In this document: piece after piece, positions 3,808-54,650 of the stretch
How positions within the stretch are numbered: position 1 is the stretch's first letter
How the letters are laid out: each line of letters begins with the position of its first letter
Source of the DNA: Acidobacteriota bacterium
Lineage (GTDB): Bacteria; Acidobacteriota; JAAYUB01
DNA length: 64,000 nucleotides
Direction: 5' to 3'
Assembly: GCA_018001935.1 (NCBI GenBank)
Contig: JAGNHB010000018.1
Span: 14,286-78,285, forward strand
Program-made: the position numbers and the translations under genes
Notes under the pieces: generated by a model
What the model was told of the DNA's origin: nothing
What the model saw: the letters and a program-made list of their open reading frames with translations, nothing else
Database searches by the model: none

Positions 3808-3936
3808 GCTTGTCCTCTTTGAATCCGGAGACCGATTGACCGATCACTCTAGCAGGAACCCCCGGCCGCCGTCAACCCTCAATCCGGGGACGTCAAGGTT
3901 GGGGAGGGAGGGCGGGAACCCCTCTGCCGAGGGGTT

Positions 3937-6843
<2,907 letters not shown>

Positions 6844-6860
<17 letters not shown>

Positions 6861-11000: not shown

Positions 11001-11279
11001 GGCCTGGCCGATGTAGATGTCGGCGTAGGCGTCGGGCCCCACGGTGCCGCCCATGAAGTAGGCGTTGTAGGTGGTGATGAGTTCCAGATGCTCGGCCGGG
11101 ACCTTGAAGTAGCCATAGGGCGGGACCTCCACCCAGCCGCCGTGGTCGTTGCACTCCTTCACCAGCCGGTATCCCAGGAAGGAGTGGGTCTTGGGCTTCC
11201 AGGCGAGGGCGTCCGCCTGAAAGCAGGCCGAGAGGGCGAAAACGGCCAGGGTCATCAGAAATACGGATCGTCGGTTCAT
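8040..11279 (-). CDS. large secreted protein (1079 aa), possible zinc-dependent phospholipase C / S1-P1 nuclease-like N-terminal domain
   Basis: signal peptide MNRRSVFLMTLAVFALSA; mature N-terminus AWKPKTH...GPDAYADIY...H resembles the Zn-PLC Trp/His ligand pattern (weak); GGGAGG RBS upstream of ATG at 11279. Confidence 0.65.
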   Translation of the reverse strand: MNRRSVFLMTLAVFALSACFQADALAWKPKTHSFLGYRLVKECNDHGGWVEVPPYGYFKVPAEHLELITTYNAYFMGGTVGPDAYADIYIGQAFIHPREGTTSGEWVKYLWDKACALPEGSETTDEPAGAYLPLNTGRGSQMLEDVAIERTASRLTRTQYKKACKAFVLGMMVHGACDLFGHTWVNSWAGGPFPKVTDGITSAEAQNIARHMLVETYVDQKIGWSADGGCSPRMFSLRAILFNGSVASGFNPLFQKTGFPKHLDVFIRLRQSLGDAIGRLNPGDWFQNLIRTYCINWVADIDTGLSAWVYANAEVGRLVTQGKLVLSDDEKGENGYDAVDVLQAWADQYLSSMCGEPDILVALDELFSDVMDYLAYLDPLAALKEEIKDRVLEWLCEEITGQDPDTLAAWMKNPANYIKEPLFPPNALARINGELGNFGSAGMDCWDNADENLLHNFEPFYNSLAMSKLVLIGHAGADELLTRALNRPVSQFNTNEGRKHPLVEFIGSFDESDWFKTAGFPLWGNTEYRGQVFHLLFAGFLDVSIANPAITSASLAFRKYAPLENLPLSPWYSAASGVVSNMWKFPTQVCLSTSSTVPLEGFVTGANHRLLFRGDIPSGSRNTFFTADLSGPGEIRAFVRAKGDLFPKGKPAAKVRYEFPDWRHWEPDYACHYAYDWDPEGEYNVNFPMHPYVHYSLLPHFCFRKLDQAVVHANWREGDAQMNLGDCNGPHWSFPLIPDILTNRYLDWANLTLENFGYSGYGDIFGWHRLYCGYYSNDDRLLIPGQEVKTTLLERTVNADEIHVNAVNFSGEIAPGQSTQGVLNQVKTEPGALSLISHPGCETTSAWAVNDPDEVLATSWPFFSGEHGLVAIDGRFDTDDMQSIDSWVKHRLLKGIKTRIVGGSGLLPPECRDLAAPARHDSLFTTRTVAYAPQPTTASVLSAVRSGYSYVSTGPDIAIYLLPYKRVNNVWTDGSFLHMGQTLYTATSIEPLRDKGDLYVLVPNLQDNPNLDIVVYKGTVGGTETVVPDSCYLGAHIWQVDVKPGLYYRAEVRSVINPRKRALTNPIWIDFFPPVSFTP

Positions 11280-11484
11280 GTCAACCTCCCGCTCGATGGT
11301 GGTTGCATTGTCGCCGGGAGCGGGGGGAAACGGAACCGGGGGATATCACCGATCGCGTGGGAGGATTTACCGGTGCGCCGCCTTCGTCGATGCGATGGGC
11401 GAACGGGCCCAAAGCACGATCCCGCCCCGAAGGAGGCGGGATCGGCGGCGTTCTCGAGGCCTGTGCGTCGGGGCGGCCCGCCGG

Positions 11485-14349
11485 CTACTCCAGCTCCAGG
11501 CCGGGGTAACAGCCCAGGGCGGAGCCGTCCAGCGGGAGGATCCGGAGGTCCCCCGCCAACGGCTGGGTGCTCTCCGCCCTGATCCAGGCCACCTCCGGCG
11601 CTTCCGCCCCGAAGAGGTCCTCCAGGGAGGCCGACAGGACGGCCCCCGCCGGGAGGGTCGCCGCGTGGGCAGCACGTTGCGTCCCGGCGGCGTTGAAGCC
11701 CCGCAGGGTGACCTCCGCGGTGGACGCCGACACGTTGGTGAGCCGGAGCCGGGACACGGAAACCCCGGGTGTGCCCGTGAGCGGGAAGCAGAACTTCTTC
11801 AGACCGCTTTCGAAGGCCTCGAGGCCGTCGAAGCGGAAGGGGGCCGTCCGGGAGACCATGAGTTCGAAGCCCATCATCCGACGGGCGCCGTCCAGCCGGA
11901 ACCAGGCCGCCCCGGGGTAGTGGCCGCCCAGCACGGCCCAGACCTCGCGGGTGAGCTGCTGCCGGCCGTAGAGGCCCACGTAGGCGGTGGAGAGGGGGTT
12001 GCCGTCACGGTCGCGGATGTCCACGGTGCAGGTGTTGCCGGCGTTGTCCAGGTTGGTGAAGGTCACCCCGGTGAACCACTCGGCGTCGTCCGGGACCTCG
12101 TTGAAGACGAGGGTGAAGAGGGCGGAAGCGCCGGCGGTCTCCCCGTCCTTGGCCGACGCGTTGAGCGGGCGCGCCGGCAGCCCCGCGAGCCCCTGGTCGC
12201 CCAGTTTCCCGAAGAGTTCGAAGCCGAGGAGGGGCGTCTCGGCGTGGGCCCGGACGTACCGGATCCGGCCGGGGTCCTCGAGGTCGGCGAAGACCTGTTC
12301 CACCAGGCGGACCGCCTTGCCGTTCCCGGGAAGGAGGACCGACCGGGTGGCCAGTTTCTCGCCGGAGTCGGCGTAGGCGTCCAGGTCGGCCTGGACGGGC
12401 CCCGTGCCGGGGTTGACGAGGGTGATCCCCGTGTAGAAGGCCCCGGACTGTCCCGGGGAGACGAAGACGTAGGGGAAGACCAGGTCCGTGTCCCCGTCCG
12501 TCTCGTCGAGGGGAAGGGTCACCAGGGCCTGCCCGTCGGCGGTCCCGAAGGCCAGCACCCCCGCGAGGGCGGTGCGGGTGGAGATCGTCATCCAGGGGTC
12601 GCGGGCGAGGGTTTCCGGCGTGAAGTCGGCGGCGGCGTCCAGGGTGAACTGCTCGCCGGCCCCCAGACTGTCCAGGGTCCGGGTTTCGGCGGGCTGCCCG
12701 TCGGCCCCGTAGGCGTCGAAGCGGACCGGCCCCCCTACGGCGCCGGTGTTCACCAGGGTCAGCCGGGTCCACCAGCCGGGGGTCCCGGCGAGGTGGGCCA
12801 CCCGGTAGACCCGGTTGACGGTGAGGGTGACGGCGGCGCTGTCGGCGTGCCCGTAGGCGTTGCCGACCCGCACCCAGTAGACGGCCGTCTGCCGGGGCTT
12901 GACCTTGAGGGTGGCGGACGTGGCGCCGGAAACGGGGGTGGAGACGTCGCCCGCGGGGCCCGTGTACCACTGGTAGGTCAGCGGGTTGGTCCCCGTGGCC
13001 GTCACGCTGAGGGTTACCGACTGCCCGAAGCTGACCTCCTGGGAGCCGCTCTGGCTGGTGATGGCGGGCGGGACCGGGGGGGCGCCGCCCTGCTGGACCG
13101 TGTGAATCAGGGTCTGGAGGCCGGCGTTGAGACGAACGGAGCCCGTCCGGGGAACCGGGTCGTTGTTGGGGTCCACGGCGAACTGGACGGTCCCGTTGCC
13201 CGAACCGCTGTTGCCGCTGGTGATGTGGACCCAGGGGCTGTTGGTCATGGCGGTCCAGGTGCACCCAACGCCCGCGCTCACCGTGAAGCTCCCCGTCCCC
13301 CCGGTCCACCCCGCCGCGGACTGGGCGGGGTTCATCTGGTAGGTGCAGTTGGGGTCCACGTCGTAGACCAGGTAGCACACCTCGCACGCCACGATGGCGG
13401 AGGTGTACTTGATCCGCATGTAGCCCCCCTCGCCCCAGCCGGCTCCCCAGCTGTTCCGGAGGTAGAAGACGCCCTCGGCGTCGTTCCAGCCCACGAGGGC
13501 GATGGCGTGGTTGGTGGGGGTGTCGTAGCACGGGTTGGAGGAGCAGGCGGTGTTGGTGTCCTCGTAGATGCCGCCGCTGTACGCCTGGAAGGCACTCCCG
13601 GCGTAGACGGCGGCGTCCACCACGCCGTAGGTCAGGATGGCGGTCTTGATGGCGTCCACGTCGCCGCAGGGGACACGGTACCAGCCGGAGAACCGCGTCA
13701 CGGGGTCGCTCCAGTGCGTGCAGCTGCCGGGGTCGTTCTGCTGGTAGGGGAAGAGGGACTCGTCGCAGACGCCGTAGTCCACCAGGGCCTGAAGTTCACT
13801 GTAGGTGTAGTCCGCGCCGCTGCAGCCGTAGAAGTGGCTGCGGTACTCGGACAGGCGGCCCAGGCACCAGATGATGTAGGACTCGGAGAAGTCGGCGCAG
13901 TTGGCGTCGAAGCGCCCCGTGGCGAAGTTGTAGACCCCTTCCGCGGCGGCGTTGGCGCCGAAGGCGTAGCAGGAGCCGCAGCCGCCCTGGTTGCGGACGG
14001 GGCCGATGTAGGCGTGGCCGTTGACGTTCCGCCAGTCGAACTGGGCGGGGAGGCTCAGCTTGCCCAGCACGCCCTGCAGCGGGCCGGCGTCGGATGGCGC
14101 GGCCGGGTCGGCGGGCGTCGCCGGGGGCCGGCGGCTGAGGAACGCCCGCTTCTGTTCCGCCGGCATGTCGTAGACCCAGTTCCGGTCCACGGTGAACCGG
14201 TAGCCGTTGGCCTCGATCTTGGACCGGAGGGCGTCGAGGCTGTCGTCGTCGGCGAAGGGGAGCTTCGGCGACCCCTGGGCGGCGAGCGGGGCGGCCAGGG
14301 ACACGAGGAGGAGGAACCAAACGGCGGGGCGGGGGAAACTGGGCTTCAC
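11485..14349 (-). CDS. secreted papain-family (C1A) cysteine peptidase with Ig-like domain and about 480-aa C-terminal repeat module
   Basis: catalytic motifs QGGCGSCYAFG, NHAIALVGW, NSWGAGWGEGGYMRI; GTG start at 14349 with GGAG RBS and signal peptide VKPSFPRPAVWFLLLVSLAAPLAAQG; the ORF continues upstream only as 5' read-through. Confidence 0.85.
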   Translation of the reverse strand: MKPSFPRPAVWFLLLVSLAAPLAAQGSPKLPFADDDSLDALRSKIEANGYRFTVDRNWVYDMPAEQKRAFLSRRPPATPADPAAPSDAGPLQGVLGKLSLPAQFDWRNVNGHAYIGPVRNQGGCGSCYAFGANAAAEGVYNFATGRFDANCADFSESYIIWCLGRLSEYRSHFYGCSGADYTYSELQALVDYGVCDESLFPYQQNDPGSCTHWSDPVTRFSGWYRVPCGDVDAIKTAILTYGVVDAAVYAGSAFQAYSGGIYEDTNTACSSNPCYDTPTNHAIALVGWNDAEGVFYLRNSWGAGWGEGGYMRIKYTSAIVACEVCYLVYDVDPNCTYQMNPAQSAAGWTGGTGSFTVSAGVGCTWTAMTNSPWVHITSGNSGSGNGTVQFAVDPNNDPVPRTGSVRLNAGLQTLIHTVQQGGAPPVPPAITSQSGSQEVSFGQSVTLSVTATGTNPLTYQWYTGPAGDVSTPVSGATSATLKVKPRQTAVYWVRVGNAYGHADSAAVTLTVNRVYRVAHLAGTPGWWTRLTLVNTGAVGGPVRFDAYGADGQPAETRTLDSLGAGEQFTLDAAADFTPETLARDPWMTISTRTALAGVLAFGTADGQALVTLPLDETDGDTDLVFPYVFVSPGQSGAFYTGITLVNPGTGPVQADLDAYADSGEKLATRSVLLPGNGKAVRLVEQVFADLEDPGRIRYVRAHAETPLLGFELFGKLGDQGLAGLPARPLNASAKDGETAGASALFTLVFNEVPDDAEWFTGVTFTNLDNAGNTCTVDIRDRDGNPLSTAYVGLYGRQQLTREVWAVLGGHYPGAAWFRLDGARRMMGFELMVSRTAPFRFDGLEAFESGLKKFCFPLTGTPGVSVSRLRLTNVSASTAEVTLRGFNAAGTQRAAHAATLPAGAVLSASLEDLFGAEAPEVAWIRAESTQPLAGDLRILPLDGSALGCYPGLELE

Positions 14350-14580
14350 GGGATCACTCCGTCGGGGGATTTGGCGCCCGGGTGGGCAACCGTGCATTCT
14401 ACAACACCGGGTTCCGGGGTGGTGAGGCAAAAGCGGGGTGAACCGAAAAAACGGGCGAACGCCTGTGCGAGCTTGGCGCCAAGACCAGGCGGACCCGGAT
14501 CTGTCCCGCCAAGGAGCCAGGCTCGCAACGCAACGAAGGGAAGGGGGTTGCAAAAATGTCCATCGATCCGAAATTCGCCC

Positions 14581-14609
14581 TTGACCGGGGCGGGAAACGG
14601 GGGTATCTT
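14581..14609 (+). promoter_or_regulatory. candidate sigma70-type promoter (TTGACC, 17-nt spacer, TATCTT) for the 14654 gene
   Basis: cTTGACCggggcgggaaacgggggTATCTTcc, about 45 nt upstream of the AGGAGG RBS and ATG. Confidence 0.45.
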
Positions 14610-14653
14610 CCTTTTGAAAAAAACACGCAGGTTTCATCCTGTGACAGGAGGTT

Positions 14654-15406
14654 GTGATGAGGAAGCTTGTATTGGCCCTGTTCGTCGCCCTTTGCCTGAC
14701 GGCCTTCGTGGTGGGCATCACCCCCGAGGAGAAGCGCCAGTTCGACCTGGAGCACAGCGGTCACGGTTCCTCCCACCAGGTCGGGCCGGGGCTCCTGGGC
14801 GCCCACGCCCTGATCTTCTCCGAGGAATTCGAGGGCGCGGTCCCGCCGGCCGGCTGGACCATGGTCAACAACGCGGGGGGCGCGGTGGTCTGGAACACCA
14901 ACACCTCCTTCAGCGATGGAAACTTTACCGGCGGGGCGGGCAATTGCGCCGAGGCCTGCAGCGACTGTGTCGGGACCGCCGAGTTCGACGTCGAACTCCG
15001 GACCCCCGTCATCAACTGCACGGGCGTCACCAACGCCACCCTGACCTTCAACGCCAACTACCAGAACTTTGCCAACTACGATTTCTTCGCGGTGGACGTG
15101 AGCAACGACGGCGGGACCACCTGGAACAACGTCCTCTCCTGGAACGAGGACCACGGCGGTTTCGGGGCCCTGCCCGGCGTCCCCGTCAACCTGAACATCT
15201 CGGCCTACGCCGACAACCAGCCCAACGTCATGATCCGCTTCCACTACTGGGACCCCAACACCGCGGACTGGGACTGGTACGTGCAGGTGGACAGCGTGGC
15301 CGTCAACGGCGACCAGGCCCCCATCCCCACGGTGTCGCCCGCGGGCCTTCTCGGCCTGGTGGCGGTGCTGGCGGGCGCGGGCTTCCTGGTCTGGCGCCGG
15401 CTGTAA
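14654..15406 (+). CDS. secreted protein with PEP-CTERM-like C-terminal sorting signal
   Basis: N-terminal signal peptide; C-terminus PIPTVSPAGLLGLVAVLAGAGFLVWRRL (P-rich motif, TM helix, RR tail); AGGAGG RBS. Confidence 0.7.
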   Translation: MMRKLVLALFVALCLTAFVVGITPEEKRQFDLEHSGHGSSHQVGPGLLGAHALIFSEEFEGAVPPAGWTMVNNAGGAVVWNTNTSFSDGNFTGGAGNCAEACSDCVGTAEFDVELRTPVINCTGVTNATLTFNANYQNFANYDFFAVDVSNDGGTTWNNVLSWNEDHGGFGALPGVPVNLNISAYADNQPNVMIRFHYWDPNTADWDWYVQVDSVAVNGDQAPIPTVSPAGLLGLVAVLAGAGFLVWRRL

Positions 15407-15437
15407 CGAACGCTATTTGCAATGCTGCCGACCGCTC

Positions 15438-15480
15438 CGTCCCCAGCCGGGGACGGAGCGATCTGTTTTTCCGGGGCAGT
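15438..15480 (+). terminator. rho-independent terminator-like hairpin
   Basis: gctccgtcccc-agcc-ggggacggagc perfect 11-bp stem followed by gatctgttttt. Confidence 0.6.
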
Positions 15481-15660
15481 CAGAGCCGCGCGCGTAAGCA
15501 AGCGGCCATTTCTCCCTCAGAGCCGCGCGCGTAAGCAAGCGGCCATTTTCCCCTCAGAGCCGCGCGCGTGAGCAAGCGGCCATTTTACCTTCGTAAGCAA
15601 GCGTAAGAATTTCCATGATTTACCGCTCCCTAACGGTCGCGGCTCTGACTGTTTCCCGGA
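15470..15660. repeat. three tandem copies of an approximately 42-bp unit (cagagccgcgcgcgtaagcaagcggccatttt...) closed by an inverted arm (ggtcgcggctctg)
   Basis: read directly; the unit core GCCGCGCGCGTAAGCAAGCGG also occurs at 37012 and 52911. Confidence 0.8.
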
Positions 15661-15678: not shown

Positions 15679-17076
15679 TCAGGGGACCTCGCCCGAGGCG
15701 GCAGCGGGGTTTCCATTCCGGGGCGGGGCCGGCGCCCACGGGACCATGACGGAGACGGGGCCGTGGAAGGTGCGGGCCCCGGTGTCCTCGACGTCCTCGA
15801 GGCGGTACCAGTAACGGGTGCGGGGGAAAACGCCCGGGTCCGTGAAGGTGTACGCGGCCCCGCTGATCTCGGACTGTCCCCGGCCCGGGATGAGGGTCTC
15901 CGTGATCCGGGCGTAGGGCCCTTCTTCGGATTCCGCCCGCCAGAGGTGAAAGCCCGCGTTCCGGATCTCGGTTTCGGTGACCCAGTCCAGCCGGACCCCA
16001 CCCTGGCACGGCAGCGCCTCGAAGGAAACCAGTTCGACCAACAGCGGGGTGAGGTCCCGGGCCAGGCAGATGCGAAGGTCACTGCCGGAACCCGTCGGCG
16101 ACCCGCCGTAATACATCCGAAGGGACCCGTCTGGCGCGAGAATCACGTCCGGGGTGTAGGCCCTGCCCGCCCGGTAGGTCGGTGCACTGCCCCCCACGGC
16201 GAAGAGGGGGTTGTTGGCGTCCTTCGTCCAGGTGAGGCCGTCCGGGGACGAGGCGTAGCCGATCCCCTCGTGCGAGGCGGACTGGCCGCCGGAGTACCAG
16301 AGGTGGTAGCCGTTCTCGTCGCGGAAGACGGTGCCGAAGGTGGCGTAGGCGGCGTCCCACGACCCCGACCCGCCGTAGGGGAGAACCGCGCTCGTCGAGT
16401 AGGCGGTCCAGTCGATCCCGTCGCTGGAGTAGGCGAGGCCAAGGCTCTCCGTACCGCCGGAGGTCCCATCGTAGTACATCACGAAGCGGTAGTCCCAAGG
16501 GTCGGTTCCGCTGTTGGACGCGCCGGGTTGGTAGAGCACGCAGGCGGGACCGTAGCTGCCGCGGTTCCAGCCCGTCCCGGACATACCGGTGATGAGGGGG
16601 TTCGACGAACTCTGCGTGACGGCCTGGTCGTCGTCCCAGTCGATGCCGTCGCTCGATTGGGCGGTGTGGAGGTCGTCGAGGGTGTAGGTCATGTTGGACG
16701 TCCAGTACCAGACCCGATAGGGCGCTCCGCCGGTGATCCCGAACCCGTCGGCATCGTAGAGGACTTTGGCGTGCCCGGGGTTGGTCAGGCCCGTGGCGGA
16801 AACGGACGAACCCCAAGCCAGGCCGTCGGAGGACGTGACCATCCGGAGGGTGCCGCTCGCCCCGTACCACATCCGCCAGGTCGCCCCCCCCGACACGCCG
16901 AATGCCTCGTAATCGTAAAGAACGGAGGGGTAGTCCGCCCGCGAACCCGGGTCGACGAGCGGGTTGGCGGTGTAGTCCTCCCAGGCCGTGTAGTCGTGGT
17001 CCGCCCGGAGCGAGCCCACCAGGCAGAGGAAGGCGAGAACGAAGGCTGCCGACCGGATTTCACGCTGGGTTTTCAC
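15679..17076 (-). CDS. secreted BNR/Asp-box repeat beta-propeller protein (sialidase/glycosyl-hydrolase-like) with C-terminal beta-sandwich domain
   Basis: repeated Asp-box-like SSDGIDW, YSSDGIDWT, SSPDGLTWTK; GTG start at 17076 with GGAGG RBS and signal peptide. Confidence 0.7.
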   Translation of the reverse strand: MKTQREIRSAAFVLAFLCLVGSLRADHDYTAWEDYTANPLVDPGSRADYPSVLYDYEAFGVSGGATWRMWYGASGTLRMVTSSDGLAWGSSVSATGLTNPGHAKVLYDADGFGITGGAPYRVWYWTSNMTYTLDDLHTAQSSDGIDWDDDQAVTQSSSNPLITGMSGTGWNRGSYGPACVLYQPGASNSGTDPWDYRFVMYYDGTSGGTESLGLAYSSDGIDWTAYSTSAVLPYGGSGSWDAAYATFGTVFRDENGYHLWYSGGQSASHEGIGYASSPDGLTWTKDANNPLFAVGGSAPTYRAGRAYTPDVILAPDGSLRMYYGGSPTGSGSDLRICLARDLTPLLVELVSFEALPCQGGVRLDWVTETEIRNAGFHLWRAESEEGPYARITETLIPGRGQSEISGAAYTFTDPGVFPRTRYWYRLEDVEDTGARTFHGPVSVMVPWAPAPPRNGNPAAASGEVP

Positions 17077-20299: not shown

Positions 20300-20400
20300 G
20301 GGAGGGTGCCCGACACGGAAATGGAACCACGAAATACACGGAAGACACGAAAGGGAAAAGAACCACGAACCACACCAACCACACGAACCGCCTCCGCGGT
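20300..20400. repeat. CACGAAC/ACCACACGAAC short tandem repeat block
   Basis: ggaaccacgaaatacacggaagacacgaaagggaaaagaaccacgaaccacaccaaccacacgaacc; related blocks at 46560-46640 and 63240-63300. Confidence 0.7.
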
Positions 20401-20619
20401 CCCGGAGGGACCGAGGACATCAGTCGGTGGGAACACCGCCTCCGGCGGAGCACCCACCGGCCAGGCTCCCCCATCCCTTCGGGATGCCGCCGACCGCTCC
20501 CGATTTCTTGCTCATCCTGCCCAAGATCTTGCTTTGAAGGTACTGCGCTTTCTTCCGGGACTTCGCCCGGAAAAGTGGCCTCGGCAGGCAACCGGAATCG
20601 ACAACAGGTTGGCAAGAAC

Positions 20620-20680
20620 GCAGCCGCTGAAGCGCCTACCAGCCTTCAGCCTAACAGCCTTCAGCCTATCTCGCCTCCCC
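20620..20680. repeat. CCTTCAGCCTAACAG heptamer-pair repeat overlapping the stop of the 20666 gene
   Basis: cgcctaccagccttcagcctaacagccttcagcctatctcgcc; the TAG stop is inside cagcctatc. Confidence 0.8.
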
Positions 20681-23540: not shown

Positions 23541-23672
23541 GAAAAGGACAAAAGGACCAAAAGGACATAAAGGACGGCACGGAGGGCAAACGGGTTACCC
23601 TGCGGACGCCCCTGCCCCCACCTGCTGTTATGAAGTCCTTTAAGTCCTTTAAGTCCTTCAAGTCCTTCCCGG
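23541..23672. repeat. inverted pair of AAAGGAC heptamer arrays with an approximately 56-nt loop
   Basis: ggaaaaggacaaaaggaccaaaaggacataaaggacgg ... gtcctttaagtcctttaagtcctttaagtccttcaagtcc. Confidence 0.85.
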
Positions 23673-23766
23673 GCGAAACGGTCCCGTGGGGGGAAGGCGG
23701 GAAAGCCACCGGCCTGGCCGCGTCGCGGCTGCAGGAACAGAAGCCGCCCCCCTCCCTCGGCCGCCG

Positions 23767-23845
23767 CCCCGATCGCCGCCGCCCATCGTCGCCCCCCGAT
23801 CGCCGCCGCCCATCGTCGCCCCCCCCGATCGCCGCCGCCCGCTGA
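23767..23845. repeat. three tandem copies of an approximately 28-bp unit CCCGATCGCCGCCGCCCATCGTCGCCCC
   Basis: read directly in the 5' region of the 23915 gene. Confidence 0.85.
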
Positions 23846-31572: not shown

Positions 31573-31639
31573 GGGATTCCCCTTGATTTCAGTGTTCGGC
31601 GATTCGGTGGCGCGAGAACGAAGTCAGGAGTCAGGAGGA

Positions 31640-31815
31640 AGAGGAGGGATGGGAATAGTGGGAGTTATGGGAATTCTGGGAGTTGTCAAGATGTGGGAGG
31701 AAAGGGGAGAGAAAGGGGCAAGAAGAGGCAAGAACCCCCCAGGCTCCCGCAATTGCCACGAATCCCATAATTCCCATAACTCCCATCATTCCCATCATTC
31801 CCATTCTCCCCTCAC
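31640..31815. repeat. inverted pair of 9-nt tandem arrays (GGGAATGAT/GGGAGTTAT versus CCCATAATT/CCCATCATT) between the ATPase and permease genes
   Basis: gggaatagtgggagttatgggaattctgggagttg ... cccataattcccataactcccatcattcccatcattccc. Confidence 0.85.
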
Positions 31816-32539: not shown

Positions 32540-32925
32540 CTCCACTCGGAGCTGTTTTTCGATGGGCATGGGATGTTTATCGGAGTCGGAAAAGGACGAA
32601 AGGACCAAAAGGACCAAAAGGACCAAAGGGACGGCAAGAACCGAAAAACATGAAAGATATGAAAGACATGAAAGACATGATCCCCAACCTCCAGCCCTGG
32701 CCTTCCGCCTTGTGTCTGCAACATCTTTCCGCCTCGTGTCTCCGACAAGCCTTCCGCCTCGTGTCTCCCGCAAACCTTCCGCCTGTTTCCCTTGCGATGC
32801 CGATTGCGATGCCGATTGCGACTGCGATTGCGACTGCGATTGCGATACCGATACCGATACCGATTCCGACCCCGATGGGAAGATCCCCGGACCTTCAGCC
32901 TAACAGCCTTCAGCCTAACAGCCTA
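32540..32925. repeat. composite repeat element: AAAGGAC x5, ATGAAAGAC x3, approximately 21-nt CCTTCCGCCTCGTGTCTCC x3-4, GATKGCGA/GATACC hexamer array, CCGATGGGAAGATCCCCGGACC linker, TTCAGCCTAACAGCC x2
   Basis: read directly; fills the whole 390-bp spacer between macA and the ATPase gene; the macA TAG stop lies in the terminal cagcctac. Confidence 0.9.
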
Positions 32926-36834: not shown

Positions 36835-37011
36835 CGGCCCGGGCGGCGAGGGGTGCGGGCCCGGCCGGCTGGCCCCGGCGACGTAAACCGGGACGGGGGC
36901 CGGGAGGGGTCCGGGCGATTTTTCGGGAATCGGGGCAGGGCGTGAATCCCTGACCGGTCACCGGCCGTATCTGTAAAACGGGGTGGCGGTTGGGCCGACG
37001 GGAAACCCGTC

Positions 37012-37080
37012 AGCGCCGCGCGCGTAGGCAAGCGGTTGAAGATTTTGCAGTTGCCACCATTTCTCGGTCGCGGCTCCGTT
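37012..37080. promoter_or_regulatory. copy of the GCCGCGCGCGTA(A/G)GCAAGCGGTT(G/A)AAG motif with downstream inverted arm GGTCGCGGCTC
   Basis: cagcgccgcgcgcgtaggcaagcggttgaag ... tctcggtcgcggctccg; compare 52911-52940 and the 15470-15600 tandem copies. Confidence 0.5.
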
Positions 37081-37181: not shown

Positions 37182-37215
37182 CGATTCGCATTTCTCCGTG
37201 CCTCCGTGAGAGATG
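37182..37215 (+). promoter_or_regulatory. conserved 32-bp motif CGATTCGCATTTCTCCGTGCCTCCGTGAGAGA, 47-78 nt upstream of the sensor-kinase start
   Basis: 30/32 identity to the reverse complement of 17138-17169, which sits at a similar distance upstream of another gene. Confidence 0.5.
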
Positions 37216-43949: not shown

Positions 43950-44300
43950 CTTCGCGATCTTGGCGCCTTGGCGAGAGCCGACCCGGATCTTGATCTCGTA
44001 AAGGCGCAAAGATCGCAAAGGAAGACTGCAAAAGGAAGGGAGAAGATCGAGGGTTGCGGGCTGTAGTCGACAAGGGGGCCGCCGATCCCGGTCGCGAGCG
44101 CGTCCCCGGTCGAGTGCGACAGCGCGTGCGAGTGCGGCTGCGACAGCGCATGCGATTGCGATTGCGATTGCGATTGCGACGGCGATTGCGACGGCGATTG
44201 CGATACCGATAGCGATTGCGATACCGACCCCGATACCGATACCGACCTCGATGGGAACCCCTCCGGACCTACAGCCTACAGCCTATAGCCTACAGCCTAA
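43950..44300. repeat. composite repeat element: GCAAAG block, long GCGAYWGCGA/GATACC hexamer array, CTCGATGGGAACCCCTCCGGACC linker, CCTACAG x4
   Basis: read directly; lies immediately downstream of the 44312 gene. Confidence 0.9.
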
Positions 44301-46559: not shown

Positions 46560-47030
46560 AAACCAAGAACCACACGAAACAGCGACCACGAAACACTTGA
46601 AAACGGAACCGCAAACCGCACGAAAGAGAACCGCCCCTTGTTTGTCGGGAAGGCGGACCGAATTCCCGCGAAGAAACAGGACAGGCCGGAAATCAACCGC
46701 TCGAGGGCGTTCTGGTTTTCCGGGAAAGGACGAAAGGACTTAAAGGACCAAAACGACCCAAAGGACAGGGTGGGCGGCCACTTTTTCTCCGCGGTCCGGT
46801 TCGGGGATCCCGCACCGTGATCCGTTTCTTCTCATCGCTCCCCTTCATCCCCTTCATCCCCTTCATCCCATTCATCCCATTCATCCCATTTATCCCATTT
46901 ATCCCATTCATCCCATCATTCCCATTCTCCCCACTCTCTGCTTTCTTCTCTCTTTTTCTTTGCTTTCTTTGCTCTCTTTGCTTTCTTTGCGGTTTCTGCT
47001 CTCTTTGTGGCTTCCCCCGGTTTCGCGCCC
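46560..47030. repeat. composite repeat region: CACGAAC block, AAAGGAC x5, CCCATTCAT 9-mer x10, CTTTGCTTT array
   Basis: read directly. Confidence 0.9.
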
Positions 47031-47031
47031 G

Positions 47032-48807
47032 TCACTTCCTGTAAAGTCGGCGGGCGAAGGCGCGGGCGAAGTCCACCATTTCCTCCTGGGTGTTGACGAA
47101 GTGGACGTTCCAGCCCTGCTCCCGGAGTCGTTGAACCTCGGGCGATGCGTAAGACTCCGGCATGTGCAGCACGAAGGTGCCGCCCCCCCTCGCCGCCGCC
47201 AGGGCCCGGGCGGCGACCCCCCAGCCGTCCGGTGCGTCCTCCAGCATGTGGAAGATGTCGTGGTCGGACACCACCATGACGTGGACGGGATTGCGGGGGG
47301 GCGGCCCTTTCAGGAACGCATCCTCCAGCCGGAGGACCCCGAAGGCGTAGCCGGTGCCGAGGTAGTTGACCAGGACCTCCAGGACTTCCGCCGGGTTGCG
47401 GATGAACCCGCGGGTCTGGTGGAATTTTCCCGGTTCGCCGGAGAGGCACGCCATCACCCGCGCCCCGGCCCGCAGCGCCGACAGGGCCACGATGGCGCCC
47501 GCCAGGACCGGGTGGGAGAGATGCGCCGCCGGGTTGAGCATGGAGCCCGAGCAGTCGATGCCGAGGTAGAGGTCGGTGGGGACCCGGGCGGGCTCGGGGC
47601 CCTCCACCGCCCCGTGGAGCCGCCGGACCGTGGTCACGCCGGGGATCACCACCGGACTGCGGACGGCCGTCTCCACCCAGTCGATCTCCTGGGGGCTTCG
47701 GCCCGTGTCCCACACGTCCACGCCCTCGGGTTGGGGTTCCATGGATTTCCCGAGGACCTTGACGGGAAAGCGGATCAGGTGGGGAATGGCCCGCTCCCGG
47801 TAGTAGCGGGCGACCAGGTCCTGCTCGGGAACGTCCACCCCGAGGCCCCGCATCAGCGCGGTGTACGCCTCGGGGTCGCGGTACGTCTTCACCCCGCCCA
47901 CGGTCTCCTTCCCGTCACCCGCCACGGGCGCCTTCTCGGGGGCCGCCGCCTCCCCCGTCACCAGCGGGTCCTCGGCGGGGTGGACGGCGGCCTCCTCGTC
48001 CGCCTCGATCTCGGCCAGGCCGTCGGGGACCTCGATCCCGGCGCCCGCCTGCGCGGTGTCGAGCCAGATCATCCGCCCCCGGCCCAGGCCTTCCTGCTCC
48101 GGTATCTCCAGAAAGTAGGGGAGCAGCAGCGCGGCGAAGCGGCCAGCGCCCTTGAGCCAGTCCTTCGCGTAGACGCGGACGACCCGGGCCCCGAGGCCGG
48201 CGTCCACCTCCAGGGCGGGGTCGGGCGGCCCCGCCGCCGCCAGCGTCCCGCCCGGCAGGGCCCACAGGACCTCGTAGATCCGCATGTAGAGGCGCCACAG
48301 CCGGTCGTCTTCCCTCGTTTTGCCCCTGAGCGCCCGGTAGACGGCGGCCATGTCGAGGCCGGCGCCGCGCTGGAGACGGTCGTTGACCAGGAGGTCGGCG
48401 TAGAGGTTGGCCGCCAGTCCCGCGAAGGCCTCGCGGGTGGGGAGGCCCGCGCGCATGCGGGCCAGGAGGCGGCCGTTGTCGGCCAGGTCGGCGGGGCACA
48501 GGGCGTGGTGCCCCGCCTCGTGGGCCAGGATGGCGGTGGCCAGGGCGTGGTGACCGGCTTCGTGGGCCGGGATGGCGGGGTCGCGCTGGTCCAGTCCCAG
48601 TTCCTGGATTTTCCGGAGGTTGATCACCACGGTGTGGTCGAGGAGCCGGATCATGGCGATGGAATCGTAGATCCCCTCGTCCTCCTCCCTCAGGCGCCAC
48701 GTGGGCGGCCTCAGGCGCAGGAAGGGGCTCCAGGCCGCCAGGGCCGCCGGCCAGCACGCCTCCCACCCGGCCTGCAGGGAAGCGAGCGCGGCGTCCTTCG
48801 CCCTCAC
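47032..48807 (-). CDS. vWA (MIDAS) domain protein with N-terminal HExxH metallopeptidase-like motif (DUF2201-like architecture)
   Basis: MIDAS DLYLGIDCSGSM; duplicated HEAGHHAL; GTG start at 48807 overlaps the upstream stop (GTGA); alternative ATG at 48654. Confidence 0.7.
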   Translation of the reverse strand: MRAKDAALASLQAGWEACWPAALAAWSPFLRLRPPTWRLREEDEGIYDSIAMIRLLDHTVVINLRKIQELGLDQRDPAIPAHEAGHHALATAILAHEAGHHALCPADLADNGRLLARMRAGLPTREAFAGLAANLYADLLVNDRLQRGAGLDMAAVYRALRGKTREDDRLWRLYMRIYEVLWALPGGTLAAAGPPDPALEVDAGLGARVVRVYAKDWLKGAGRFAALLLPYFLEIPEQEGLGRGRMIWLDTAQAGAGIEVPDGLAEIEADEEAAVHPAEDPLVTGEAAAPEKAPVAGDGKETVGGVKTYRDPEAYTALMRGLGVDVPEQDLVARYYRERAIPHLIRFPVKVLGKSMEPQPEGVDVWDTGRSPQEIDWVETAVRSPVVIPGVTTVRRLHGAVEGPEPARVPTDLYLGIDCSGSMLNPAAHLSHPVLAGAIVALSALRAGARVMACLSGEPGKFHQTRGFIRNPAEVLEVLVNYLGTGYAFGVLRLEDAFLKGPPPRNPVHVMVVSDHDIFHMLEDAPDGWGVAARALAAARGGGTFVLHMPESYASPEVQRLREQGWNVHFVNTQEEMVDFARAFARRLYRK

Positions 48808-51499: not shown

Positions 51500-51830
51500 T
51501 GTCACCGGCGGTTTCGAGGCGAAAGGACGAAAGGACCAAAAGGACCCAAAGGACCAAAAGGACCGCGACAAGCCGGTGCCGGATGCAACGAGACCGTAAC
51601 CGGCATTGCCATCGCTGTGGGTATCGCTGTCGCCGTCGTCGCTGTCGCCGTCGTCGCAGCCTCCGATCCCGTCTCCCTCATCGTCAGCCCCTGGCCGTCC
51701 TTTGCGTCCCTTTGGTCCCTTTGGTCCTTTCGTCCTTTGATTCCGACCTCGATCCCGATTGCGACAGCGACCCCGATCCCAACCCCGATGGAAAATCCGA
51801 AAAGAACCGGTGTACGTCCCGAAACATAGG
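51500..51830. repeat. composite repeat element: AAAGGAC array, GC-rich hexamer block, inverted GTCCTTT array, GATYCCGA hexamers, CCCCGATGGAAAATCCG linker
   Basis: read directly upstream of the AAA+ gene. Confidence 0.85.
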
Positions 51831-52115
51831 GCGAATCCGCCGGGATGTCAACGCGAAAACGGGTCGTAACCCATTCCGGACAGGGGAGGTCGGAACCACG
51901 GACCACACGCAAGAGAAAGGTTGTTCTGCCTGTTCTCTGTCCGTGAAGTTTTGCCGAGGCACGAGTGAGGATTATCCTAATTTGTGGCTCGAAATACGGT
52001 GGGCATCGCGATACAATGAATCTTGAAGAAAAATGGGGAGGATGTTCGGGCTGCGAAACAAAGAGGGACCACTTTCTTTCGGTCGGAGAAGTTTGAACCG
52101 CACGAGGTGAAGTTC

Positions 52116-52415
52116 ATGTTGGAGATTGACAAGATCAAACCAGAGATCGCCGCCCTCTGCAAGCGCTTGTATGTCAGGCGCCTGGAACTTTTCGGCTCGG
52201 CGGTTACGAAGGAGTTCGGTCCGGGGAGCGATGTGGACTTTCTTGTCGAATTCGACCGGGGAAAGGGGGATCTCTTCAACTGGTTTTTTGAGTTGAAAGA
52301 GGAGCTGGAGAGACTGGTATCAAGGCCGGTGGATGTCATCGTCACAGACGCGATCCGGGATTCTTTCTTCAGGAAAGTGATAGAGCAAACCCGGACGTTG
52401 CTGTATGCCGCTTGA
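52116..52415 (+). CDS. minimal nucleotidyltransferase (MNT) antitoxin
   Basis: LELFGSAVTKEFGPGSDVDFLVEF nucleotidyltransferase-fold motif (GS...DxD); ORF may begin at 52023. Confidence 0.7.
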   Translation: MLEIDKIKPEIAALCKRLYVRRLELFGSAVTKEFGPGSDVDFLVEFDRGKGDLFNWFFELKEELERLVSRPVDVIVTDAIRDSFFRKVIEQTRTLLYAA

Positions 52416-52617
52416 GATCAAGAAAACTCTTTTTGACATCGTGGCTCCCTCTTTGTTTTCAAGGATTACAAACGCCCAGCGGATTGCAGGCTTCCGCAAT
52501 ATTATCGCCCACGGATACGATGCGGTCGATGAAGCCATTGTCTGGGAGGCGGCTACCGTCCACTTGCCAATTCTGAAGGCGGAAATCGAGCACTGGATGG
52601 AGGCTGACGAGAGGTGA
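52405..52617 (+). CDS. HepT-like (DUF86) toxin, apparently short or N-terminally truncated
   Basis: Rx4HxY motif RNIIAHGYD; only 70 codons versus about 115-140 typical. Confidence 0.5.
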   Translation: MPLEIKKTLFDIVAPSLFSRITNAQRIAGFRNIIAHGYDAVDEAIVWEAATVHLPILKAEIEHWMEADER

Positions 52618-52865
52618 ACCTGATGCAGGAATTCGAGGTGGCGGTGGAGAAGGGGGAGGACGGCAGCTACCGCGCGTCCGTTCCCGGTCTGCCGGGCTGC
52701 GAAGCCCGGGCGAAGAACCTGGAGCAGTTGATGCCCCGGGTGCGCCAGGCTGTCCTGTCCCGGCTCGCGGAGGAAGGCGGCGGGCCCGGCGCCGGGGACG
52801 AGCTCGTGTTGCGGGTGTCCATCTCGCTGCCCGCGCCCTGGGCCCCCTTCCCGCGCGAGTGCTGA
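52614..52865 (+). CDS. HicB-family antitoxin-like protein (no HicA found)
   Basis: EFEVAVEKGEDGSYRASVPGLPGCEARAKNLEQL matches the HicB N-terminal consensus. Confidence 0.6.
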   Translation: MNLMQEFEVAVEKGEDGSYRASVPGLPGCEARAKNLEQLMPRVRQAVLSRLAEEGGGPGAGDELVLRVSISLPAPWAPFPREC

Positions 52866-52910
52866 GACGTTCGCCGCGGGGGCGGCCATCCGGCAGGTCG
52901 GAAACCAGCC

Positions 52911-52940
52911 GAAGCCGCGCGCGTAAGCAAGCGGTTAAAG
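52911..52940 (+). promoter_or_regulatory. copy of the GCCGCGCGCGTAAGCAAGCGGTTAAAG motif, 30-60 nt upstream of the 52970 start
   Basis: about 26/30 identity with 37012-37042. Confidence 0.45.
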
Positions 52941-52969: not shown

Positions 52970-54199
52970 ATGGTGAGACGGAGCGTGTTCCGCGTTTCGG
53001 CGGTCGGCGTGTGCCTGCTGCTGGCCGTCCTGGCCGCGACCCCGTGCCCGGCCCAGAAAAAGGCCGCCACGGCCCCGCCAAAGCCGGCCCCCGCCGCGCA
53101 GAAAGCGACCCCGGCCGCGGCCCCGGAGAAGATCGTGCCGTGTCCGCCCGACTTTGTGCTGGAAAAAGAACTCCCCGGCGAGGACCCCTTCTGGGTCTAC
53201 CGGCCCACCTTCTCGCCGGACGGCCTCACCGCCGCCGGTTTCCTCCACTCCAGCCACAAGATCCTGATCTGGGACCTCAAGACGGCGAAGGTGATCAAGG
53301 AGTACGACGAGTCGGTCCACGGCATGCCGGCCCTGGACGGGTTTGAGTACACCGCGGACGGCAAGATGCTGATCCTGATCTACCGGGACCTCCCGCTGAA
53401 GTTCCTGGACCTCGCCGCGGGGAAGGTGGTCCGCACCCTGCCCACCGCGGCGGACCCCAAGAAGGTCTACGACTACGCCTTCAGCCCGGACATGAAGCTC
53501 CTGGCCTTCGGGACCACCACCGGCATCAAGCTGTGGGACCTGGAGAAGGGCGCCCAGATCGCCACGTACCTCGACGGGAAGACCGTCAGCGGCCTGGACA
53601 TCGTCTACTACAAGACGAAGGAGGGCAAGCTCGTCCGACTCATGGCCTACGGGCTGTTCCTGGGGAAAGGGGCCGAGTTCCGCGACGTGGCGGGGATCAT
53701 CGATCTCGACACCGGGGCGGTGAAGCCGGTCCTCAACGACGTTCCGAAGGAGAAGGTGAAACTGGGCGACATGACCCTCTTCTGGGTCTCCTTCGAGCAC
53801 GGCGGCGGCTACCTGATGGTGGGCTACTCGGTCTTCCCGCCCCAGGTGACCGCGGGCGTCTACCTGGTGGGGACGGCCACCGGCAAGTACCTGGCCGACC
53901 ACGCCCTGGAGCAGTACATCCTGATGTACGACGCCTGCTACCTCTGGAAGCCCTTCTACGGCTATCTGGTCTGCACCAGGAACATGAAAGTGGACCCCTA
54001 CAAGGTGAGCACGGAGTTCCTGGTGATCACGAAGACGGACGGGCTCACGGCCATCGACTGCACCCGCGAGGACAAGCTGGCGGTGCAGTCCGTCACCGTC
54101 GCCCGGGACCAGTCCCGGGCGCTGATCGCCACCAAGGCCTCCCAGGCGGCCCCCAGCAAGGTGTACCTGTACCGCCTGGTGCCCAAGACGCCGAAGTAG
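52970..54199 (+). CDS. secreted WD40/beta-propeller-like protein
   Basis: signal peptide MVRRSVFRVSAVGVCLLLAVLAATPCPA; repeated LxxWDL/FSPD blade-like motifs; GGAGG RBS. Confidence 0.65.
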   Translation: MVRRSVFRVSAVGVCLLLAVLAATPCPAQKKAATAPPKPAPAAQKATPAAAPEKIVPCPPDFVLEKELPGEDPFWVYRPTFSPDGLTAAGFLHSSHKILIWDLKTAKVIKEYDESVHGMPALDGFEYTADGKMLILIYRDLPLKFLDLAAGKVVRTLPTAADPKKVYDYAFSPDMKLLAFGTTTGIKLWDLEKGAQIATYLDGKTVSGLDIVYYKTKEGKLVRLMAYGLFLGKGAEFRDVAGIIDLDTGAVKPVLNDVPKEKVKLGDMTLFWVSFEHGGGYLMVGYSVFPPQVTAGVYLVGTATGKYLADHALEQYILMYDACYLWKPFYGYLVCTRNMKVDPYKVSTEFLVITKTDGLTAIDCTREDKLAVQSVTVARDQSRALIATKASQAAPSKVYLYRLVPKTPK

Positions 54200-54213
54200 T
54201 GGCGCAAGCCAAA

Positions 54214-54240
54214 GTGGTGGCGCAAGCTTCAGCTTGCGCG
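54214..54240 (+). terminator. hairpin gcgcaagc-ttca-gcttgcgc after the 54199 gene (no T-tract)
   Basis: perfect 8-bp stem; between convergent genes. Confidence 0.35.
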
Positions 54241-54494
54241 GGAACTCAATCGGCGGCTCTCTGTCTCCGGAAGGCCTTTCCCGGCCGCTGCCGCCCAGAT
54301 CGGACCGATCGGTCGGATCCGACGGATCGGTCCGATGCTGCCCCTCCCCGTCCTCGGCCGTTCAGGCTCCGGCGGCGTGCGGGTCCTTCGCAACCCGGGC
54401 CGTCTGGGGCCGACCGCGCCGCTCCGCGGACTGCGCGGCGCGGGGAAAGCGGCGCTCCGGCAACCTGCGCACCGCACTCCGCAGCGGAGACGGC

Positions 54495-54650
54495 GGCGGC
54501 GATCCCGATTGCGACAGCGATCCCGATTACGACAGCGAGAGCGATTGCGATACCGATACCGATACCGATGGGAACCCCTCCGGACCTACAGCCTACAGCC
54601 TTCAGCCTTCAGCCTTCAGCCTAAACCCCTTCAGCCTATCCCCTACCTTC
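54495..54650. repeat. composite repeat element: GATCCCGATTGCGACAGC hexamer array, CCGATGGGAACCCCTCCGGACC linker, CCTACAG/CCTTCAG heptamers
   Basis: read directly; the giant gene's TAG stop lies in the terminal ccctacc. Confidence 0.9.

Follow-up and report, generated by a model that had tools for sequence, protein, structure and literature searches.

Tandem and single hairpin repeats in an Acidobacteriota genome are very probably REP-like elements of the class 3 Y1/HUH transposase family

Introduction

In an intergenic region of an Acidobacteriota genome, three GC-rich units stand head to tail and are followed by an arm that pairs with them. Single copies of the same core lie elsewhere in the window, by which we mean the whole 64-kb stretch of DNA that was analyzed (G+C = 68%), and these single copies lie ahead of genes. 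What are these repeats, and do they act on the genes beside them? A preliminary description had treated them as a hairpin-forming repeat family with a possible link to gene starts. We find that the window repeats are very probably REP-like elements of the family tied to class 3 Y1/HUH transposases (TnpA_Y1 class 3). The array, which we call site 1, is a BIME/REPIN-like cluster of this known REP family and is selfish intergenic DNA, not a gene-specific regulatory signal. Three features had gone unnoticed: the closing arm is a second REP type, the 23-mers are hairpins behind a CnGA foot, and the system to which they belong is a published Y1/HUH system.

Y1/HUH proteins fall into class 1 (IS200/IS605), class 2 (TnpA_REP/RAYT) and a small new class 3 (Quentin et al. 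2018, BMC Genomics 19:475; PMC6006769). That 2018 survey held only 24 class 3 proteins, with the motifs NHVH, W[TA] and YV[VI][AENY]EQ and with hosts mainly in the Planctomycetes, Acidobacteria and Proteobacteria (PMC6006769). Class 3 REP-like sequences have a CnGA foot and number about 600 in Solibacter usitatus, which has three class 3 genes; those in Table S1 include CCGAGCCGCGACCGTAAGGGAGCGGA from Legionella pneumophila and CAGAGCCGCGACCGTTAGGGAGCGTCCCG from S. usitatus, with the structure ((((..((....))..)))) (PMC6006769). The host of the window, an Acidobacteria MAG, falls inside this published host range.

Results

A tandem array and an inverted arm between convergent genes

Site 1 lies between a MAM/IPTL-CTERM gene on the + strand that ends at 15406 and a 488-aa ORF on the - strand that stops at 15679. 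The 37-nt unit TCAGAGCCGCGCGCGTAAGCAAGCGGCCATTTTCCCC occurs there three times head to tail at 15480-15590 (unit 1, 15480-15516; unit 2, 15517-15553; unit 3, 15554-15590). That the units are three in number and near-identical is borne out by TRF (2.9 copies, 95% matches, score 193), which returned a period of 37 nt in place of the 42 bp first proposed. A repeat search of the window put the identity of the three 37-nt copies at 100%, 95% and 89%. The features of the site are as follows.

15481-15505, + strand: REP unit 1, A-type, with a CAGA foot and the hairpin GCCGCGCGCGTAAGCAAGCGG; 0 mismatches to the A consensus
15518-15542, + strand: REP unit 2, A-type; 95% identity to unit 1, spacer included
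15555-15579, + strand: REP unit 3, A-type, with a GTGA loop; 1 mismatch, in the tetraloop
15592-15603, + strand: fourth A-type copy, from the repeat search, 5'-truncated, with the 3' half CGTAAGCAAGCG alone kept
15623-15647, - strand: inverted B-type REP unit (the "closing arm"), which reads CAGAGCCGCGACCGTTAGGGAGCGG; 1 mismatch to the B consensus
15470-15660, no strand: whole composite palindromic element, A-A-A-(half A)-B', with an outer stem TCCGGG...CCCGGA beyond the REPs

The closing arm CCGCTCCCTAACGGTCGCGGCTCTGACTG (15623-15651) does pair with the unit start, as had been proposed: over 26-29 nt, its complementarity to the beginning of each 37-nt unit is 81-83%, with a best value of 83% over 29 nt. 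Folded as ssDNA, 15470-15660 reached -45.5 kcal/mol (z = -3.85), and as RNA -86.9 kcal/mol (z = -5.45); in both cases none of 200 shuffles was as good. In the resulting long imperfect hairpin, the B' arm is paired with unit 1, and the inner units retain their separate small hairpins. The palindrome extends outward to about 15470-15660, and each unit is also a small hairpin of its own and not solely one arm of a large one. Unit 3 is separated from the B' arm by 43 nt; these two arms are 81% complementary, and the 106-nt fold has -20.8 kcal/mol (z = -3.5).

The most likely origin of the A-A-A-(half A)-B' array is a single A/B' doublet in which a 37-nt block of REP and spacer was duplicated locally in tandem, with a partial deletion later. 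Local duplication is favored over three separate insertions because the 14-nt spacers were co-duplicated (CCATTTCTCCCTCA, CCATTTTCCCCTCA, CCATTTTACCTTCG), and the half unit indicates the later deletion. A CRISPR array was ruled out at this site, where the A-type units are contiguous, joined by a constant 14-nt linker and without CRISPR spacers.

An intrinsic terminator at 15433-15470, with a 12-bp stem that has 10 G-C pairs and is followed by TCTGTTTTT, closes the MAM/IPTL-CTERM gene. Because it adjoins the REP array, little transcription probably enters the array from that side. An ORF of 1,418 aa at 11278-15534 (+) crosses two REP units. It does not pass the codon-position G+C test and is therefore most probably a spurious shadow of the gene at 11485-14721 (-). 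For annotation, ORFs that read through the repeat, such as this one, are probably spurious, and REP translations such as ..SRARKQAV.. are a likely source of false hypothetical proteins.

Two hairpin types with one design

The A-type 23-mer is GAGCCGCGCGCGTAAGCAAGCGG, which by itself folds as ((((..((....))..)))) behind a 5' CnGA foot. Its B-type sister is found in the closing arm as GAGCCGCGACCGTTAGGGAGCGG and has the consensus GAGCCGCGACCGTnAGGGAGCGG; this second 23-mer, whose reverse complement is CCGCTCCCTnACGGTCGCGGCTC, often adjoins the A core upstream or downstream in inverted orientation. Each hairpin is built from a 4-bp outer stem (CCGC/GCGG), a 2x2 internal loop that starts from a conserved G.A, a 2-bp inner stem and a GNNA tetraloop. 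The two types share one hairpin and differ in the inner pair, which is flipped (G-C in A, C-G in B), and in the internal loop (GC/AA in A, GA/GA in B). A is imperfectly complementary to B, so inverted neighbors form longer REPIN/BIME-like hairpins.

The ssDNA minimum-free-energy fold of unit 1 is ....(((((..((....))..))))). at -7.5 kcal/mol, and both A-type and B-type units take the published ((((..((....))..)))) shape as ssDNA; single-unit folds were weak against shuffles (z = -1.6 to +0.6 for A-type, z = -2.3 for B-type). Copies were counted twice, with anchors on the outer stem in one tally and on the loop region in the other; the tallies cover about 260-320 copies. The counts were as follows.

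Pair 10-17: G-C 143, C-G 97
Pair 11-16: C-G 220, T-A 20, G-C 6
Pair 6-21: G-C 280, G-T 13, A-T 9, C-G 2
Positions 8/19: G.A in 243 of 257
Loop: GNNA, as GTAA, GTGA, GTCA, GTTA, GCAA or GCGA

GTGA, the loop of unit 3, is the second commonest in the family. The foot is largely constant: of the approximately 260-320 copies, about 90% have C at -2 and about 90% have GA at positions 1-2. In the window the foot is CAGA in all three units and on the - strand of the closing arm, and it is slightly mutated at 37011 and 52909. In the core alignment, conservation begins sharply at the junction of yGA and GCC and ends sharply after GCGG.

We measured covariation in 104 distinct 23-mers gathered with sequence anchors on one or the other stem, a choice that favors conserved copies; in this set 93.6% of cells pair, against 82.4% in shuffles. 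Double-change cells numbered 54 where 11.3 were expected, and compensatory changes occurred at four of the six pairs and in both stems. Not one of 500 shuffles reached the observed values, and all slid controls collapsed. These results demonstrate that the hairpin is under selection.

The closing arm matches a published class 3 REP

The reverse complement of 15624-15647 is CAGAGCCGCGACCGTTAGGGAGCG, which is identical at 24/24 positions to entry 0 of S. usitatus ABJ83664.1 in Table S1. The window repeats share with the published class 3 REPs the same 23-26-nt sequence (in the B arm), the CnGA foot and the weak hairpin shape; the signatures of the bracketed protein described below and the host phyla are also the same (PMC6006769). 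They differ in the A-type GAGCCGCGCGCGTAAGCAAGCGG that dominates the window, in which C10-G17 has become G10-C17 and the internal loop A.G has become C.A. A search of Table S1 of PMC6006769 for the A-type string 'gcaagcgg' gave 0 occurrences. Judged by its sequence, the A-type is a new variant inside the described family that is absent from the published table. Two further differences are that PMC6006769 describes neither A/B' heterotypic doublets nor a tandem 37-nt array and that the cognate gene was not found inside the 64-kb window. A literature search for the literal repeat sequence returned nothing relevant.

Single copies in the window lie in ordinary intergenic spacers

The 21-nt core GCCGCGCGCGTAAGCAAGCGG was found with at most 1 mismatch at 15485, 15522, 15559, 37015 and 52914, always on the + strand. 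Five matches in the window against 0.00 expected (100 shuffles) mean that the repeat is real and that chance is excluded. The matches at 37015 (1 mismatch) and 52914 (0 mismatches) belong to 23-mer cores that stand without an array, at 37013-37035 (site 2) and 52912-52934 (site 3), which brings the window to 3 loci and 6.5 units per 64 kb. The features at these two sites are as follows.

37011-37035, + strand: single A-type REP with a mutated foot CAGC and a GTAG loop; 2 mismatches
37054-37076, - strand: B-type partner arm, degenerate, with the GAGCCGCGACCG half alone kept; 6 mismatches to the B consensus
52909-52934, + strand: lone A-type REP with a CCGA foot and one extra A; core match with 0 mismatches

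Single copies had been noted before at both sites, the first with an arm downstream. Both cores are present and so is the arm GGTCGCGGCTC downstream of 37013, but the arm is degenerate, and the 81-nt region of the site 2 pair folds no better than shuffles (z = +1.2). At site 3, a search around 52912 found no partner arm. Site 2 is flanked on the + strand by a Ser/Thr-kinase/FGE-sulfatase fusion gene that ends at 36834 and a hybrid sensor kinase gene that starts at about 37206. Site 3 lies 47 nt 3' of a HicB-like gene and 35 nt 5' of the ATG at 52970 of a WD40-like gene, which is preceded by GGAGG; the earlier remark that this copy sits just before a ribosome-binding site is correct.

Could the repeats control these genes? 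At two of the three window sites the repeat precedes a + strand gene in the same orientation, in one case by the short distance just given, and the hairpin would form in RNA too. Such a cis-regulatory element (a 5'-UTR RNA, a riboswitch-like structure or a transcription factor or promoter site) acting on the genes at 37206 and 52970 is, in our assessment, extremely unlikely. The genes that flank the three sites are unrelated (hybrid histidine kinase, WD40-like and MAM/IPTL-CTERM), and site 1 lies between convergent genes, past a terminator. A sigma-70 promoter scan around site 1 gave no sites. Rfam gave 0 matches over the whole window at gathering score and, at E <= 1 around site 1, two chance-level matches of which neither lies on the repeat. 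In other genomes the copies occur in both orientations and in inverted doublets, are depleted in divergent promoter spacers and bracket a transposase gene, as detailed below. Thus the supposed link to gene starts is not upheld. One of the window sites lies in a convergent gene pair and two in tandem pairs, and the two "upstream of gene" cases are plain tandem intergenic spacers. For annotation of the window, this removes a candidate regulatory motif.

Two further candidates were considered at the single copies and set aside. A -35/-10 reading of the core at site 3, matched by hand, was dropped with only 3/6 + 3/6 positions in agreement. An integron attC site had been prompted by the GTTRRR-like GTTGAAG/GTTAAAG that follows the core at two sites; it was rejected because site 1 lacks this tail, as does the family in general, in which the sequence 3' of the core varies. 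There are no tRNA or tmRNA genes in the window, so tRNA-linked integration is not indicated.

Directly upstream of site 3 is a lower-GC islet at 52023-52865 (58% versus 68% for the window) with genes for an MNT-type nucleotidyltransferase, a HepT-like RNase fragment (70 aa) and a HicB-like antitoxin. In a search for an empty site, the closest relatives of the WD40-like flanking gene were only 65% identical, and in a related strain (89% identical MoxR) the contigs stop before the repeat region. Repeats of this kind may explain why short-read assemblies of this organism break at such sites.

Copies in other genomes are single units and inverted doublets

We scanned a species-representative genome collection with GCCGCGCGCGTRRGCAAGCGG and found the A-type core at no fewer than 120 loci, so the family does have further copies. 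Among the matches listed, the hosts were mostly Acidobacteriota (Bryobacterales, Solibacteraceae), and the others were Planctomycetota, Verrucomicrobiota (including a closed 6.0-Mb chromosome), Binatia, Chloroflexota and delta, beta and other Proteobacteria. Several of the MAGs among these matches had multiple loci, for example CAWAPW01 with four. Nearly half of the A units at the genome loci were lone (61 of 140; 44% singletons). The rest were mostly paired with an inverted B, either head-to-head or tail-to-tail, across spacers of 5-147 nt, and direct arrays like that of the window accounted for a few of the 140. This arrangement across genomes is BIME/REPIN-like. Separately, nine viral or proviral contigs in IMG/VR (L203-L211) carry the exact A-type 23-mer.

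Viewed by itself, site 1 resembles a 170-190-nt element with 29-nt imperfect terminal inverted repeats, and the family is multi-copy and intergenic, as would be expected of a MITE derived from a DDE-type insertion sequence, with the A/B' arms as terminal inverted repeats and a classical transposase acting in trans. The lone 23-mers among the A units speak against this, and doublets in both head-to-head and tail-to-tail form with such a range of spacers are unlike a fixed-length MITE. There is no target-site duplication around 15470-15660, where the flanks are inverted and not direct, and the sole gene seen bracketed by the repeats encodes a Y1/HUH transposase. We therefore regard a MITE as highly unlikely.

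We then sorted 104 classifiable REP clusters from other genomes by the type of spacer that holds them, with genes called crudely by GC position. The results were as follows.

Tandem spacers: 56% observed, approximately 47-56% background
Convergent spacers: 34% observed, 22-27% background
Divergent spacers: 11% observed, 22-26% background

For the depletion in divergent spacers, the binomial p is 0.004 to 0.0002. Like classical REPs, these repeats avoid promoter-only spacers.

This distribution, with its enrichment between convergent genes, could also reflect a structural element selected by the host, such as a bidirectional terminator, an mRNA 3'-end stabilizer or a site for a nucleoid protein. 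The very stable composite RNA fold at site 1 is in keeping with such a role, and abstracts of the literature assign roles of this kind to classical E. coli REPs. As a rival to the REP reading it is nonetheless very unlikely. A canonical intrinsic terminator already stands just upstream of site 1, and the REP hairpins of the window have no T-run 3' of them on either strand. Purifying selection against promoter insertions would by itself predict the same location bias, and the bracketing of a transposase gene would be left unexplained. As a secondary effect, a structural role is compatible with the REP reading.

The repeats bracket a gene for a class 3 transposase

At one locus (L050), an ORF of 165 aa that contains an HVH motif stands between two REP groups, and there and at L121 both A-type and B-type units lie on each side of the gene. 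A metagenome scan for the approximately 164-aa protein yielded 80 loci (L121-L200). Where the flanks are long enough, most of the genes have one B unit 26-60 nt ahead of the start codon and a second, inverted B unit 14-24 nt past the stop codon. This inverted B pair around the gene is the classic REPtron arrangement. The flanking pair of each gene shares a lineage-specific variant (...GACTGTAAAGGA... on both sides, ...GACCGCAAGGGA... on both sides, ...GAGTGTGAACGA...), and the two ends therefore co-evolve or are homogenized within each lineage. Over L121-L200 we also saw CTGTAAAG, CCGCAAGG, AGTGTGAAC or CCATAGG as lineage variants at both gene ends.

Homologs of the protein numbered 2,735 at E <= 1e-5, most of about 164 aa, and many carry the JGI label "REP element-mobilizing transposase RayT". 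An alignment of 27 sequences contains an invariant H-V-H and an invariant Tyr in YVVxEQG, and NHVH, W[AS] and YVVxEQ agree with the signature motifs of class 3. Profile matches fell below threshold: NCBIfam REP_Tyr_transpos scored 21.5 bits against a cut-off of 80, Pfam Y1_Tnp 22.2 against a cut-off of 23, and the NCBIfam IS200 transposase family matched the 165-aa protein weakly and sub-threshold. A search of PDB sequences with the protein profile gave chance matches only. We modeled the protein with AlphaFold (AF2; pLDDT 78.7, pTM 0.78) and searched the fold of the model against the PDB; the best match was 4ER8 (E. coli TnpA_REP with a REP hairpin), followed by the IS200, ISDra2 and IS608 TnpA proteins. 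As modeled, the REP-bracketed protein has the Y1/HUH fold.

The 64-kb window contains no class 3 transposase gene by tblastn or by HMM search with filters off, an absence that is expected for a low-copy gene. A tblastn search with the transposase against 72,556 plasmids (PLSDB) gave no match and hence no sign of a plasmid vehicle.

Tandem partial duplications of the foot and the 5' half of the REP were frequent, especially adjoining the transposase gene (L164 at about 470-560; L140 at about 3890-3945; L158 at about 375-415), and at L003, L076, L106 and L115 they lie just 5' of the core. Examples are CTGAGCCGCGACCTA, present four times with a 15-nt period, and CCGAGCCGCGACCAGTAT, with an 18-nt period. 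The breakpoints recur at the foot and within the 5' stem, and could be footprints of a cleavage/rejoining reaction.

Discussion

How the repeats might spread

We assume that the genome of the window contains a cognate transposase gene elsewhere, itself bracketed by an inverted REP pair. By analogy with TnpA of IS200/IS605 elements (IS608/ISDra2) and with E. coli TnpA_REP, the transposase would recognize the hairpin and foot on ssDNA, cut and rejoin. Cutting and rejoining in this manner would disperse REPs or REP doublets and seed copies in intergenic DNA, if the analogy holds. We infer mobilization and catalysis by the class 3 enzyme, and any effect on the host (mRNA 3'-end protection, termination) would likewise be a matter of inference.

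Comparison with related systems

The canonical REP/BIME elements served by class 2 RAYT (E. coli TnpA_REP, 4ER8) are, like the repeats described here, short extragenic GC-rich hairpins with a conserved 5' tetranucleotide foot, they occur as two REP types in alternating orientation, and they bracket their gene with inverted REPs (REPtron). With 4ER8 as the top match, the predicted protein fold is also the same. However, the canonical foot is GT[AG]G, whereas here it is CnGA with no GTAG or GTGG before the stem, and the stem is much weaker, with 4+2 bp and an internal loop. The Y-motif of the class 3 protein is of the IS200-like Y----Q type, unlike that of class 2 RAYT. Class 2 REPs are lineage-specific, whereas the REP described here is nearly identical across phyla.

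The REPIN doublet is reportedly the mobilized unit. Like REPINs (Bertels & Rainey 2011), two inverted REPs and a short spacer here make a longer imperfect hairpin, at site 1 and in degenerate form at site 2. Unlike in REPINs, the two arms belong to different REP types, singletons make up 44% of units, and head-to-head and tail-to-tail doublets both occur. The subterminal hairpins of IS200/IS605 elements (IS608, ISDra2) are also imperfect ssDNA hairpins that serve a Y1/HUH transposase of related fold, with a guide or cleavage motif nearby. By contrast, the IS608/ISDra2 hairpins are found only at the two ends of the insertion sequence and not as hundreds of scattered orphans, and the repeats described here far outnumber the gene, unlike in IS200/IS605.

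Possible movement between phyla

Within the IS200/RAYT superfamily, class 3 Y1 transposases are, to our knowledge, the branch that has received least study. Our searches gave about 2,700 protein clusters and a REP core that is conserved to the nucleotide across phyla. Among the matches listed, the exactly conserved 23-nt A-type hairpin occurs across the groups named above, from Acidobacteriota to Proteobacteria. REPIN-RAYT systems are marked by strictly vertical inheritance and a single-copy RAYT, and the multi-phylum identity of the core sits uneasily with this. It is possible, though we hold the idea tentatively and think it doubtful as a whole, that the class 3 REP system is horizontally mobile between phyla, that the A and B hairpins are a specificity pair and that the 5'-half duplications are footprints of cleavage and rejoining. 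If true, a horizontal inter-phylum REP system would contrast with the vertical, lineage-specific class 2 REPIN-RAYT systems. The A and B hairpins might be read by different paralogous transposases, or jointly as a heterotypic doublet. With their CnGA feet, both types are ready substrates for biochemistry, and the family offers a test case for horizontal spread of REPs. For specialists the interest lies in the family picture (the cross-phylum core, the two compensated pairing types and the 5'-half duplications) and less in the window locus.

Other repeats in the window

The REPs were correctly described as a distinct GC-rich, hairpin-forming family, separate from the short-period arrays of 6-9 nt in the window. 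These arrays form about 10 intergenic blocks, each of several adjacent arrays with periods of 6-9 nt or, in some, 12-27 nt, and have no sequence relationship to the REPs. The blocks are as follows.

826-1022, 6563-6852, 20328-20670, 23542-23840 and 31622-31804
32590-32925, 44111-44299, 46724-47007, 51522-51777 and 54190-54638

Motifs common to the blocks are CGATAC/TGCGAT, CCTACAG/CCTTCAG, AAAGGACC and TCCCATTCA, and short-read contigs of this organism end at one block. A tandem repeat with a 42-nt period (2.4 copies, 85% matches) at 48481-48580 lies under long ORFs and is also unrelated to the REPs.
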